Origin: Candidatus Lloydbacteria bacterium RIFCSPHIGHO2_02_FULL_50_18
Lineage (GTDB): Bacteria > Patescibacteriota > Minisyncoccia > Phycocordibacterales > UBA6899
Reading direction: 5' to 3'
Length of the DNA stretch: 64,000 nt
Assembly: GCA_001821395.1 (NCBI GenBank)
Contig: MHLM01000001.1
Location: 128,001-192,000 of the forward strand
Below, piece after piece: positions 27,260 to 27,663 of this stretch. The position numbers and the translations under genes are program-made. Below the pieces are notes generated by a model, which saw only the letters and a program-made list of their open reading frames with translations, did not search any database and was not told the DNA's origin. How positions within the stretch are numbered: position 1 is the first letter of the stretch; every line of letters starts with the position of its first letter.

Positions 27260-27346
27260 ATGCGTAGGTGGCGGAGCGGTCAATCGCAATAGACTGTAAA
27301 TCTATCGTCCTATGGGCTACGCAGGTTCGAATCCTGCCCTACGCAC
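27260..27346 (+). tRNA. tRNA-Tyr (anticodon GTA), long variable arm, CCA encoded
   Basis: GCGTAGG..ATAGA-CTGTAAA-TCTAT-long arm-GCAGG-TTCGAAT-CCTGC-CCTACGC-ACCA. Confidence 0.85.
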
Positions 27347-27348
27347 CA

Positions 27349-27388
27349 AATAAAATGAGCATCCCTTCCGAGGGATGCTCATTTTATT
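27349..27388 (+). terminator. intrinsic terminator after tRNA-Tyr
   Basis: aaaatgagcatccc-ttccga-gggatgctcatttt followed by a T-rich run. Confidence 0.6.
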
Positions 27389-27413
27389 ATGCGTAGAGCA
27401 AGCGAAGCTTGCG

Positions 27414-27513
27414 GGCAGGATTCGAAGACCCTGAGTTTATCGTAGCGAGCTTGTCCTCAAGCGATGCGAGATTCGAAGGGTGTACTGTCCATGTAATGGA
27501 AGAAACTCCTGCC
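27414..27513 (+). repeat. tRNA-3'-end-derived repeat unit (Tyr locus, copy 1)
   Basis: Starts GGCAGGATTCGAAG, has internal GGGTGTACTGTC and ends GAAACTCCTGCC. The 7-nt ends (GGCAGGA and TCCTGCC) are complementary. Confidence 0.55.
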
Positions 27514-27530
27514 CTTTCAATATGGCTTCC

Positions 27531-27637
27531 GGCAGGATTCGAAGCCGTTCTCCCATGTTTTTGAGCGATGGCTTTGCATCGTGAAAAAATGGGCGACATT
27601 GTTTACTTGCGAACAAACCGACCCTATGGTCGGTTTT
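27531..27637 (+). repeat. tRNA-3'-end-derived repeat unit (Tyr locus, copy 2, ending in a terminator-like hairpin)
   Basis: The first 33 nt (GGCAGGATTCGAAGCCGTTCTCCCATgTTTtTGA) are nearly identical to the unit after tRNA-Lys at 40785. The unit ends with aaaccgaccctatggtcggtttt. Confidence 0.55.
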
Positions 27638-27663
27638 ACGTATGGTGTCCAGATATATGCCCT

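Follow-up and report, generated by a model that had tools for sequence, protein, structure and literature searches.

Why do two tRNA genes that lie 13 kb apart in a Candidatus Lloydbacteria genome carry the same sequence downstream? In the 64-kb stretch analysed here (the window), the unit heads found after tRNA-Tyr and tRNA-Lys (27531–27563 and 40785–40817) agree at 31 of 33 positions, with no mismatch in the first 26, and the T-arms of the two tRNAs are themselves identical (GCAGGTTCGAATCCTGCC in both), as the initial annotation had pointed out. The 14-mer GGCAGGATTCGAAG has three exact plus-strand copies in the window, and its complement is found twice with one mismatch, inside the two T-arms; shuffled sequences are expected to hold 0.65 such matches, and none of 100 shuffles reached five. 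From the likeness of the heads it had been proposed that they track T-arm sequence rather than locus. This is true of all tRNA types examined, and it is true across species. In one relative (L017; related loci are numbered L001 onwards) the T-loop and acceptor of tRNA-Tyr differ from those of the window, and the head (GGCAGGACTCGAA) and the inverted acceptor copy are changed likewise.

A common module follows the tRNA genes of the window

The sequences downstream of tRNA-Tyr and tRNA-Lys belong to a non-coding module of about 140–200 bp, whose architecture is present at six of the eight tRNA genes of the window and at a tRNA-Val gene 8 kb beyond it. The parts come in the order X1 (the tRNA from T-loop to 3′ end), terminator hairpin, reverse-complemented acceptor 3′ strand, a 9-bp junction hairpin (hp) with a near-invariant CTGC loop and a freely covarying stem, head, structured core, and X2. 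X1 and X2 are two direct copies of the last ~17–23 nt of the tRNA gene (from T-loop position ~57 to the discriminator or CCA) with the module between them, and an inverted copy of the same segment, split by hp at the acceptor/T-stem boundary, clamps the structured core. X2 spans positions 57 to 73, ending at the discriminator, and about 17 of 61 modules have it as a perfect match (17/17). The initial description had included neither this second repeat nor the CTGC hairpin, nor the three-way-junction fold. As the module brings its own terminator, the tRNA gene stays intact and transcription ends before the rest of the module.

The tRNA-Tyr locus is composed of the following features.

27221–27249: sigma-70-like promoter of tRNA-Tyr, TTTACA-17-TATATT
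27262–27348, plus strand: tRNA-Tyr(GTA) (ARAGORN, Rfam), with X1 (T54 to CCA) at 27326–27348
27349–27396, plus strand: terminator hairpin (arms 27349–27365 and 27372–27388) together with the inverted acceptor sequence after it
27390–27396, plus strand: TGCGTAG, reverse complement of the acceptor 3′ strand
27398–27412, plus strand: junction hairpin in a local variant, GCAAGC-GAA-GCTTGC, replacing the 9-bp, CTGC-loop hairpin of other modules
27413–27514, plus strand: unit 1, type A core (covariance model R1, 73.7 bits, E = 2e-17); a long (P2) and a short (P3) hairpin, separated by GTACTG, lead from the head to the tail
27413–27426: head of unit 1, reverse complement of TTCGAATCCTGCCC
27502–27514: tail of unit 1, GAAACTCCTGCCC, a partial direct copy (X2)
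27522–27597, plus strand: second module, truncated, with P3 and tail absent; hp 3′ arm ATGGCTTCC (27522–27530), head GGCAGGATTCGAA (27531–27543) and P2 hairpin (27544–27597)

Terminator, TGCGTAG and X1 together form one long palindrome, CTACGCA-CCA-AATAAAATGAGCATCCC / GGGATGCTCATTTTATT-A-TGCGTAG (27339–27396), so that the palindrome previously described around the terminator and the acceptor 3′ end is real. Two units had been placed after tRNA-Tyr. Copy 1 is full; copy 2 is a truncated module together with the terminator of a neighbouring ORF. Its R1 score is just 14 bits (27530–27632), breaking off past the long hairpin, and 27615–27637 is part of the terminator of the convergent ORF 27664–29946, which is conserved in the relatives L001 and L017. 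The full hp counterpart of the second module is found in L017, as GGAAGCCAT-CTGC-ATGGCTTCC.

The remaining modules of the window are listed below.

40644–40881, plus strand: tRNA-Lys(CTT) with a complete module; tRNA 40644–40719, X1 40697–40719, terminator 40720–40750, inverted acceptor plus CCA (TGGTGCCCCCG) 40751–40761, hp with CTGC loop 40762–40784
40785–40881: Lys unit (R1, 100.4 bits), head 40785–40797, tail 40868–40881
21598–21995, plus strand: tRNA-Leu(CAA) with a module array; tRNA 21598–21679, terminator 21680–21717, inverted acceptor 21718–21726, hp 21727–21749, unit 1 21750–21847, then a 3′-end remnant of a type B core, unit 2 21903–21995
39976–40223, plus strand: tRNA-Leu(TAA) with a module; tRNA 39976–40057, terminator 40058–40093, inverted acceptor 40094–40102, hp (GAAAGCAAG-CTGC-CTTGCTTTC) 40103–40125, unit 40126–40223
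41091–41401, plus strand: tRNA-Leu(TAG) with a disrupted module; tRNA 41091–41173, terminator with inverted acceptor, ending at 41208, then a nested insert of ~140 nt holding a 57-nt tandem duplication (41220–41333), head GAGAGGACTTGAA 41348–41360, truncated core GCCGTTCTCC... 41361–41401
25386–25625, minus strand: tRNA-Trp(CCA) with a type B module; tRNA 25554–25625, terminator 25518–25553, GCGGG 25513–25517, type B core 25423–25476, X2 (CGATTCCTCGTGGGCCCGC) 25386–25404, repeating the tRNA 3′ end in direct orientation (18/19 identical)
18247–18385, plus strand: module with no linked tRNA, directly past the stop codon of topoisomerase I, with no Rfam match; hp GCTTGCAAT-CTGC-ATTGCAAGC 18247–18268, type B core to 18371, the two enclosed in a short inverted repeat

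The head, which is the reverse complement of the T-loop and the T-stem 3′ strand, always fits the adjoining tRNA and has two parts. Its first 12–14 nt are the exact reverse complement of positions 54–65/67 of that tRNA, and the second part (GCCGTTCTCC...) is family sequence. The two are separable at tRNA-Leu(TAG), where the family sequence recurs at 41361 and the tRNA-specific part is unlike that of Tyr and Lys. The alternative of a sense-oriented head, copied from the T-stem 5′ strand and loop, was rejected on the non-palindromic T-loop TTCAAGT, which gives the head ACTTGAA. Derivation of the inverted acceptor from the tRNA 5′ acceptor strand was likewise rejected, that strand of tRNA-Lys reading GCCTTCG and the module GCCCCCG.

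Modules occupy tRNA 3′ flanks in Lloydbacteria and related Parcubacteria

The metagenome hairpin scan yielded 57 further contigs covering 17 amino-acid specificities. A same-strand tRNA lies within 400 nt upstream of 43 of the 60 hairpin matches, and an inverted copy (at least 11 of the 12 bases of T54–65) follows within 330 nt in 52 of the 92 tRNAs (chance ~7e-4 each), although collecting the set with one hairpin variant biases these prevalence figures upward. The orientation does not vary, 43 of 43 units lying in the tRNA sense. Modules occupy tRNA 3′ flanks in Lloydbacteria and related Parcubacteria, and are present at most tRNA genes of this bacterium and its relatives. Core interiors are common to modules on different tRNAs, and the closest relatives of a given core lie on other tRNAs (84–86% identity). 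The idea of a unit specific for one T-arm sequence does not survive this comparison, since the same hairpin and core families accompany at least 17 amino-acid specificities.

The inverted arm is copied from the tRNA gene

The gap between inverted acceptor and head is a constant 24–25 nt, and the complement to the tRNA is contiguous over 21–23 nt, broken only by the constant hairpin at a fixed position. Where X1 and X2 disagree, the inverted arm agrees with the tRNA copy (L078, L028, L029, L055). The arm also mirrors genomic bases past the discriminator, and CCA is implied by only 1 of 37 arms. The template of the inverted arm is therefore the tRNA gene and not the mature tRNA; mature-tRNA templating or CCA-primed reverse transcription is rejected on the same ground. 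Some modules (L047, L033) are found without terminator and inverted acceptor, and would be co-transcribed with their tRNA.

Filled sites, empty sites and arrays

Orthologous tRNA-Trp sites differ in whether they hold a module. The site is filled in the window, in L017 and in L081, and probably also in L082, whose contig breaks off within the inverted arm; no module is present in L001 (over the 19 nt of flank compared), L021 or L083. The flank past the Trp X2 of L017 is the same as the flank directly 3′ of the tRNA in the empty sites. At tRNA-Leu(CAA), L022 holds an additional module of ~140 nt, bounded by a perfect 18-nt repeat, between the tRNA and a terminator orthologous to that of the window, and the same kind of extra module is seen at tRNA-Arg when L036 is compared with L024. 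The newest module is the one adjoining the tRNA. The earlier suggestion of a mobile or templated unit is thus borne out in spirit, through filled and empty sites, direct-repeat flanks and the position of the newest module. Presence is patchy among tRNAs and among close relatives, and copies also occur in truncated, nested and orphan form. A second family, of nested mini-hairpin inserts, is present in these genomes as well.

The order of the copies could also have come about through template switching. A nascent strand that snapped back at the terminator and T-arm palindromes would leave a tandem inversion duplication, in effect a sense-antisense-sense triplication, into which unrelated tiny hairpin elements were inserted later. 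Such a by-product predicts the observed order, with junctions centred on the terminator loop and the T-loop, and an inverted arm that copies genomic rather than mature-tRNA sequence. It also fits palindromes that are perfect over 26–27 bp, spacer bases included (L024, L048), arrays in which the same terminator is repeated (L070), an inverted copy that has no hairpin (L001) and the existence of a separate mini-hairpin family. However, more than 17 tRNA species in many genomes would each have needed an independent event, always with acquisition of the same hairpin at the same junction and of a core at the T-loop. The modules that place a foreign terminator ahead of the resident terminator (L022) and the long-term compensatory evolution of the cores also speak against it, and we give this origin very little weight.

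The core fold is real and its pairing looks DNA-like

In the core fold, 89.8% of the cells are paired, compared with 60.1% in shuffles (0/500 reach the observed value). Double, compensatory changes are seen in 32 of the 35 core pairs, and slid controls are 38–50% paired. The core fold is real. Folded as single-stranded DNA, the Lys module reaches −71.6 kcal/mol (z = −15). The ratio of GU/UG to AC/CA pairs is 56:44 in the unit helices versus 46:1 in the acceptor and T stems of the tRNAs at the same loci (Fisher p = 2e-8), so the pairing constraint looks DNA-like, without the G-U bias of RNA; alternatively, the near-equal counts could reflect neutral decay of perfect hairpins. Several motifs are strand-specific: the CTGC loop, an NGTAR loop, GTAC, and G·A pairs (78, versus 9 C·T). 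Assignment of an RNA strand from the fold energies of five units failed in a count over 52 sequences. Readings of the internal, purine-rich P2 loop as a hammerhead, a C/D box or a K-turn were discarded, the motifs fitting poorly by eye and Rfam giving no match.

A conserved, stranded fold raises the question of whether the units act as RNA. Read-through from the tRNA promoter would produce a transcript in which the inverted acceptor and the head pair with the acceptor strand and the T-half of X2, respectively. The product would mimic the cognate acceptor/T-stem minihelix, the CTGC hairpin standing where the tRNA body would be, and would serve perhaps as a decoy, a regulator or a processing signal for enzymes that bind tRNA. 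Strong covariation, the invariable tRNA-sense orientation with its strand-specific motifs, the placing of the hairpin exactly where the tRNA body would join, and the variants with no intervening terminator (L047, L033) are what such a tRNA-like RNA would lead one to expect. So is the Tyr module of L083 (Alr 73% identical), which looks orthologous to the Tyr module of the window and has its fold kept through compensatory changes; this hints at selection in place, that is, at function rather than pure selfishness. Against an RNA role, most units sit behind intrinsic-type terminators, and no promoter-like site belonging to the modules was found. GU pairs are about as frequent as AC pairs, unlike in the tRNA stems of the same loci, and when X1 is included the predicted partner of the head is the 3′ end of the tRNA itself rather than the tail. 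Many copies are truncated or have no acceptor part in X2 (the Lys, Leu and Tyr units of the window), and presence varies among tRNAs and close relatives. Function alone would, moreover, leave unexplained both the identity with the neighbouring tRNA and the inverted spacer bases past the discriminator. We regard an RNA of this kind as decidedly unlikely.

A proposed route of insertion

The reading that we favour, with confidence a little short of even, is that the modules are small, non-coding, non-autonomous DNA insertions that target the segment of tRNA genes from the T-loop to the 3′ end. The functional form would be single-stranded DNA of the tRNA-sense strand, in which pairing between the inverted and the direct copy would recreate the target as a duplex; the CTGC hairpin would branch off at the side and the core would form the distal part. 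A putative enzyme encoded elsewhere would recombine or insert this folded structure at the T-loop-to-3′-end segment of a tRNA gene. New modules would enter beside the tRNA, building arrays that are afterwards eroded by deletion and truncation. With core interiors common to different tRNAs, the ends that match the tRNA must be specified anew, either during transfer or after it; we know of no enzymatic precedent for re-specifying both the direct and the inverted tRNA-matching segments at each tRNA. Searches of the window and of one interval between modules turned up no candidate enzyme, and no excised or free form was seen, which also speaks against this reading.

If the inverted arm were a guide, re-targeting would call for a change in a single segment. 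Here the bipartite inverted segment, as RNA or single-stranded DNA, would pair with the last ~23 nt of the tRNA gene and direct a trans-acting recombinase or transposase; the element proper would run from terminator through inverted acceptor, CTGC hairpin and inverted T-half to the core, and the 17-nt direct repeat would be a target-site duplication. This agrees with the contiguous 21–23-nt complement interrupted only by the constant hairpin, with an inverted arm that follows the tRNA copy where X1 and X2 differ, with cores common across tRNAs, and with a near-invariant CTGC loop on a freely covarying stem, as for a protein handle. However, no associated protein gene was found among 40 ORFs of the window or in L034, where the 7.6-kb interval between two module copies holds metal-transport genes only and no enzyme candidate. 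The helices also have none of the G-U tolerance of RNA, a guide would match the intact tRNA gene at filled sites too, 17 nt is unusually long for a target-site duplication, and the direct-repeat data fit att-type recombination equally. We consider guide-directed insertion unlikely, if worth entertaining.

A broader possibility, which we hold with similarly low confidence, is a programmable integration specified by nucleic acid. A scaffold of CTGC hairpin and core would carry a bipartite antisense segment naming the last ~23 nt of the target, and a trans-acting enzyme or the insertion reaction itself would rewrite that segment from the target, so that almost all tRNA genes of a reduced CPR genome could be colonised by one family. 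A circular single-stranded molecule of ~190 nt may be the free form.

Comparison with known elements

The pattern fits none of the families tested, and in its behaviour resembles a novel type of insertion element aimed at tRNA genes. Across the whole window, only the tRNAs pass the gathering score of Rfam 15, and E-value scans of 39800–41600, of 18200–18600 and of 14 metagenome loci gave nothing over the units. The hairpin pattern had 0 matches in IMG/VR, and a BLAST search with the Lys module found no match in INPHARED or PLSDB. Pfam identified no recombinase, transposase or reverse transcriptase on 40 ORFs of the window, and no Y1 transposase was found in the ~82 kb of the genome examined. 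A limited keyword search of the literature returned no earlier description, which is no proof that none exists.

An integrase normally has one defined tDNA, whereas here one hairpin and core family serves at least 17 specificities. The modules resemble the islands and prophages that tyrosine integrases place in tRNA genes (attL/attR) in that direct repeats of the tRNA 3′ part flank the insert and an element-side copy restores the tRNA intact. In Klebsiella islands the mode of repeat length is 20–25 bp, the T-loop is a known ‘sublocation’ and the smallest island is 3.5 kb (bioRxiv 10.1101/2020.11.02.365908). At 140–200 bp the modules are too short for an integrase gene, hold no gene, and carry an additional inverted copy of the att segment.

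The proposed single-stranded form has a parallel in integron attC sites and the attP(+) of CTX phage, where two inverted copies, with a variable structured spacer between them, allow one strand to fold back into a double-stranded likeness of a recombination site. As with attC, structure appears to be conserved more than sequence, and new units would enter at the proximal site to form arrays. However, module alignments have no R-box consensus (RYYYAAC ... GTTRRRY), and intI, attI and dif are missing, with no integrase present in the window; the modules target tRNA genes, through a paired segment that is copied from each individual target and not from a common site.

REP/REPIN-RAYT sequences and palindromes derived from IS200/IS605 are short extragenic hairpin elements thought to be mobilised in trans through single-stranded DNA. 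The modules are also short, extragenic, hairpin-forming and non-autonomous, and nested mini-hairpin inserts occur here too. They differ in being tied to tRNA 3′ ends, REP heads being constant and having no target-derived arms, and no RAYT/TnpA was seen in the window. MITEs have constant terminal inverted repeats from a parent transposon and a short target-site duplication; in contrast, the inverted repeats that flank the module core are the local tRNA T-half, different at every tRNA, and the direct repeat is 17–23 nt.

The bridge RNA of IS110 is likewise a non-coding structured segment complementary to the adjoining insertion target, but the modules contain no ORF and have no nearby Pfam domain of a DEDD or serine recombinase, their complement is one bipartite 21–23-nt stretch around a hairpin and not two internal loops, and their pairing looks DNA-like. 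Casposons insert at tRNA gene 3′ ends with duplication of the terminal ~15 nt; they are archaeal or large, with Cas1, PolB and constant terminal inverted repeats, none of which is present here. The tandem inversion duplications of Salmonella share the sense-antisense-sense copies with junctions at two palindromes, but they are sporadic, large and selected for gene dosage, whereas the modules are 20-nt segments at many tRNAs with a conserved hairpin and cores that a duplication model does not predict. The T-box riboswitch, which pairs with the tRNA 3′ end from the leader of an aminoacyl-tRNA synthetase or amino-acid gene, differs in position, the units lying 3′ of tRNA genes and not in mRNA leaders, and Rfam gives no T-box match.

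Implications for tRNA loci of reduced genomes

If mobile, the modules would represent a type of element whose target-recognising ends are individually matched to almost every tRNA gene while the interior is shared, which would imply that the target is copied by templating in both orientations or that a programmable guide is at work. In both cases, if true, sites would be chosen by a new mechanism that is open to engineering. The modules show that ultra-small CPR genomes put up with a DNA family, selfish or semi-domesticated, that is very successful at essential genes. Should the units instead make mimics of tRNA minihelices, they would form a new class of tRNA-linked regulatory RNA. The modules also explain the tRNA 3′-fragment ‘pseudogenes’ and long palindromes that confuse the annotation and assembly of Parcubacteria bins, and because old 3′ ends persist as X2, they record the replacement of tRNA genes.

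Architecture of the tRNA-associated modules

The window is a stretch of bacterial chromosome with housekeeping genes for alanine racemase (Alr), ClpB, ParB, MiaA, RelA/SpoT, topoisomerase I, GyrA, SerRS and HisRS, and its Alr shares 100% identity with the Alr of 'Candidatus Lloydbacteria bacterium RIFCSPHIGHO2_01_FULL_49_22' (groundwater, Candidate Phyla Radiation). ARAGORN and Rfam identified eight tRNA genes. Inspection of the sequence 3′ of every one revealed a single architecture downstream of six (Leu-CAA, Trp, Tyr, Leu-TAA, Lys and Leu-TAG) and no module after Gln and Cys; the same architecture is found at tRNA-Val(GAC), just beyond the window in the same genome. 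Its parts, in order from the tRNA and in tRNA sense, are:

X1: T-loop, T-stem 3′ strand, acceptor 3′ strand and discriminator of the tRNA itself, with CCA if the gene encodes it
Terminator: hairpin of the intrinsic-terminator type, with A and T tracts
Inverted acceptor: reverse complement of the acceptor 3′ strand, forming one long palindrome with X1 and the terminator
hp: small junction hairpin; the distance from the inverted acceptor to the head is always 24-25 nt
Head: reverse complement of tRNA positions 54 to ~66, exact over 12-14 nt
Core: structured segment
X2, or tail: the tRNA 3′ segment repeated in direct orientation

The head, core and tail together are denoted as the unit. Two other readings of the inverted parts were rejected: a head copied in sense from the T-stem 5′ strand, as it reads ACTTGAA where the T-loop is the non-palindromic TTCAAGT, and an inverted acceptor copied from the 5′ strand, as the Lys module has GCCCCCG and the tRNA 5′ strand GCCTTCG. 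The head is therefore an inverted copy, and the inverted acceptor is the complement of the 3′ strand.

The initial annotation had described tRNA-Tyr followed by two repeat units, the second sharing its start with the unit after tRNA-Lys. The relevant features are:

27262-27348, tRNA-Tyr
27531-27563, start of the second Tyr unit
40644-40719, tRNA-Lys
40785-40817, start of the Lys unit

The two tRNAs do have the T-arm GCAGGTTCGAATCCTGCC in common, and the two unit starts agree at 31 of 33 positions. The 14-mer GGCAGGATTCGAAG has three occurrences plus two one-mismatch complements inside T-arms (0.65 expected from shuffles). The second Tyr unit, taken to be a full unit, is a truncated copy that keeps the head and long hairpin and has lost the remainder; 3′ of it lies the terminator of a convergent gene, conserved in relatives. 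The Tyr and Lys loci are instances of one architecture. Directly downstream of the Tyr modules is a 760-aa ORF (27664-29946, minus strand) without a Pfam domain; the gene index has no entry for it with this start codon. A near-perfect 20-bp hairpin (39905-39960) fills the spacer between tRNA-Cys, which has no module, and tRNA-Leu(TAA).

Distribution among tRNAs and relatives

In a single genome scan using Alr, Lloydbacteria were confined to the nearest relatives, and more distant Parcubacteria and Saccharibacteria had no modules at syntenic tRNAs. A single metagenome scan for the hp and head start (AAGTGCYCTGCGGCACTT N8-13 TYGAA) gave 60 matches in 57 contigs, a set ascertained with one hp variant. 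For 43 of the 60, ARAGORN called a tRNA on the same strand within the 400 nt upstream, usually at a distance of 37-64 nt; the others are at contig ends or beside tRNA 3′ fragments. The tRNAs concerned are Leu, Arg, Val, Gly, Pro, Asp, Thr, Ser, His, Ile, Glu, Ala, Met, Gln, Lys, Trp and Tyr, and each head and inverted acceptor, without exception, matches the tRNA beside it. X2 mostly corresponds to positions 57-73, ending at the discriminator. Across all loci examined, including tRNAs that had not prompted retrieval of a locus, 52 of 92 tRNAs have an inverted copy of T54-65 (at least 11/12 bases) within 330 nt (chance ~7e-4 per tRNA).

Modules outside the search pattern again have an hp with a 9-bp stem of arbitrary, covarying sequence and a CTGC loop, preceded by GAG (GCAAG-CTGC-CTTGC, GGCAAA-CTGC-TTTGCC, GTGAG-CTGC-TTCAC). 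Non-ascertained hairpins with a CTGC loop and a stem of 7 bp or more number 21, of which 16 are downstream of tRNAs; control loops give 0-7. A few modules have other hp loops (GAA at the window Tyr, TTTC at L083; L numbers denote loci in contigs of relatives or metagenomes), L001 has no hp, and L047 and L033 lack the terminator and inverted acceptor. The tRNA 3′ segment thus recurs in a sense-antisense-sense arrangement, together with a junction hairpin that is conserved and cores that covary.

In tRNA-Ser modules (L033, L066, L073, L075), X2 begins at the T-stem, not the T-loop, and an extra conserved piece, GAAAA(A/G)TGTACTCA(T/C)GG, lies between core and X2. At L023 and L064 a tRNA-like 3′ end, CCTGGTTCGACTCCAGGCACCTGTTCA, precedes a module located ~270 nt downstream of 5S rRNA; no tRNA is called there by ARAGORN or by Rfam.

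Unit fold and strand constraint

The unit has a conserved predicted fold. Each full unit is predicted to form a three-way junction of P1 (head:tail pairing), P2 (a long hairpin whose internal loop is rich in purines), a joining segment GTAC(T/C)G and P3 (a 5-bp hairpin with an NGTAR loop). The five window units are 69% identical when aligned, and of the 35 predicted pairs 23 show compensatory changes. These units were used to build a covariance model, R1, which in the 64-kb window, also with filters off, recovered only the weak truncated Tyr copy beyond its own five units. A later collection of 57 units, 52 of them distinct, has 89.8% of cells paired, compared with 60.1% in column shuffles (0/500 reach 89.8%) and 38-50% in slid controls; both sides change in 32/35 pairs, and 493 cells are compensated (136 expected). 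All R1 units with a tRNA within 700 nt (43/43) are in tRNA sense.

The unit helices contain GU/UG and AC/CA at similar levels (56 vs 44 of 1645 cells), also in P1, P2 and P3 separately, whereas the acceptor and T stems of the same loci's tRNAs have 46 vs 1 of 1020 (Fisher p = 2e-8). The constraint is therefore for Watson-Crick pairing on both strands, which would be expected of DNA hairpins or recently perfect palindromes and not of long-lived RNA. Good sigma-70-like promoters are present at the tRNAs. In front of the units, which sit behind terminators, no promoter-like site was found on either strand. A serious rival, a read-through RNA mimicking a tRNA minihelix, is favoured by the exact hp placement, the fixed orientation and what appears to be compensatory change in place between the Tyr modules of the window and L083. 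Strand-specific features (CTGC loop, NGTAR loop, G.A 78 vs C.T 9) indicate that the strand that folds is the tRNA-sense one. As single-stranded DNA, the Lys module is predicted to form a 36-bp hairpin of X1 with its inverted copy, an hp side branch, P2 and P3 (-71.6 kcal/mol, z = -15; opposite strand -69.8).

The inverted arm mirrors genomic bases past the discriminator, and only 1/37 arms implies CCA, which rules out mature tRNA as its template; it was therefore copied from the gene or primary transcript. An origin of the scaffold by template switching (tandem inversion duplication) is another serious rival.

Core types and partner switching

Type A cores have long and short forms, type B cores (AGRCGGAGC ... 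GAGYYGGGGTCG ... hairpin ... YTGTGACC) include that of the window Trp, and further types exist. Different core types occur among contigs that share an identical tRNA-Gly(TCC) 3′ end and homologous terminators. The interior shared by the second Tyr unit and the Lys unit, noted initially, generalizes: the closest core is usually on another tRNA (L070 Tyr to L065 Trp, 86%; window Leu-TAA to L036 Arg, 85%; window Leu-CAA unit 1 to L017 Tyr, 85%; window Lys to L032 Ser, 84%). On these comparisons, cores are interchangeable and switch partners.

Directly after the topoisomerase I stop codon, 18247-18385 contains a CTGC-loop hp and type B core within a short flanking inverted repeat and away from any tRNA; modules are therefore not strictly tRNA-bound. 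A second family of tiny-hairpin inserts (~55 nt, GCGACCAATTTTTCTTAGC..GCTTTAGAAAAATGAAGTACTC..TGTGGTG) occurs nested within the hairpins of modules, in both orientations (window 41209-41347, L063 ~4470-4627, L017 13440-14330); in the window Leu-TAG module it is tandemly duplicated (57-nt period, 95% identity).

Insertion, turnover and proposed mechanism

A module occupies the tRNA-Trp site in the window, in L017 and L081, and probably in L082 (contig ends inside the inverted arm); the site is empty in L021, L083 and apparently L001 (19 nt flank only). After X2, the L017 sequence GGGCCCGTC|AACTCGTGC... corresponds to the empty-site sequence directly 3′ of the tRNA, GGGCCCGTC|AAGTCG.... At L022 tRNA-Leu(CAA), an extra ~140-nt module bounded by a perfect 18-nt repeat separates the tRNA from a terminator that is the ortholog of the first one in the window, so the newest module is nearest the tRNA; tRNA-Arg(GCG) has an additional tRNA-proximal module in L036 compared with L024. 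These comparisons show insertion polymorphism bounded by direct repeats, and arrays with the youngest copy beside the tRNA. Truncated, nested and orphan copies are common.

L017, L081 and L082 carry a different tRNA-Tyr allele, which their heads and inverted acceptors follow (two to three mismatches in the L081 and L082 heads). The old allele's 3′ end (GAATCCTGCCCTACGCACCA) persists downstream in L017, and X2 of the L083 Tyr module retains an encoded CCA now lost from its tRNA gene.

We infer that the modules are non-autonomous DNA inserting at the T-loop-to-3′-end segment of tRNA genes. The module would supply a new 3′ end or terminator and thereby keep the essential tRNA gene intact, its tRNA-matching parts would be re-specified, and its single-stranded form would present a duplex copy of the target. 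The single-stranded hairpins of integron attC and CTX-phage attP form duplex copies of their sites, and the modules would be alike in hairpin logic. The repeats could reflect an att-type crossover within X or a 17-nt target-site duplication with the inverted segment as guide, which fit all comparisons equally well; guide-directed recombination is a serious rival. No recombinase was found in the window and its flanks (~82 kb of the source genome) or in one inter-copy interval, and no free module form was seen. The modules match no Rfam family and nothing in IMG/VR, INPHARED or PLSDB, and the literature searched yielded no prior description. Integrase-mediated islands parallel the modules in direct repeats and T-loop 'sublocation' but differ in that modules are small, carry no gene, contain an inverted copy and use nearly all tRNAs. 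The modules lack at least one defining feature each of tRNA-integrating islands, MITEs, attC sites, IS110 bridge RNAs and T-boxes; the mechanism may be a variant of single-strand hairpin recombination.

Other elements at module-bearing loci

Upstream of tRNA-Leu(CAA), L022 has a 5′-side counterpart (3717-3971, minus strand) in which the tRNA's first 22 nt and old promoter are duplicated; the order is duplicated 22 nt, CTGC hairpin, type B core, inverted copy of tRNA ~23-32 and new promoter, which looks like insertion at the D-loop. In L017, a LAGLIDADG_3 homing-endonuclease gene (9013-9879) overlaps the start of the replaced tRNA-Tyr allele, which suggests homing-driven tRNA gene replacement. 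Two near-identical modules in L034 (5007-12719), 7.6 kb apart with no recombinase between them and a tRNA-Tyr-like gene before only the first, surround metal-homeostasis genes (ZIP, cation efflux, thioredoxin, YibE/F); this island may have been captured via recombination between modules. In L019 and L020 (6610-8361; Parcubacteria GW2011_GWA2_47_7), a large serine recombinase gene, its 3′ end overlapping tRNA-Tyr, lies beside HEPN/AbiV genes, a conventional island at a locus that bears modules in Lloydbacteria.
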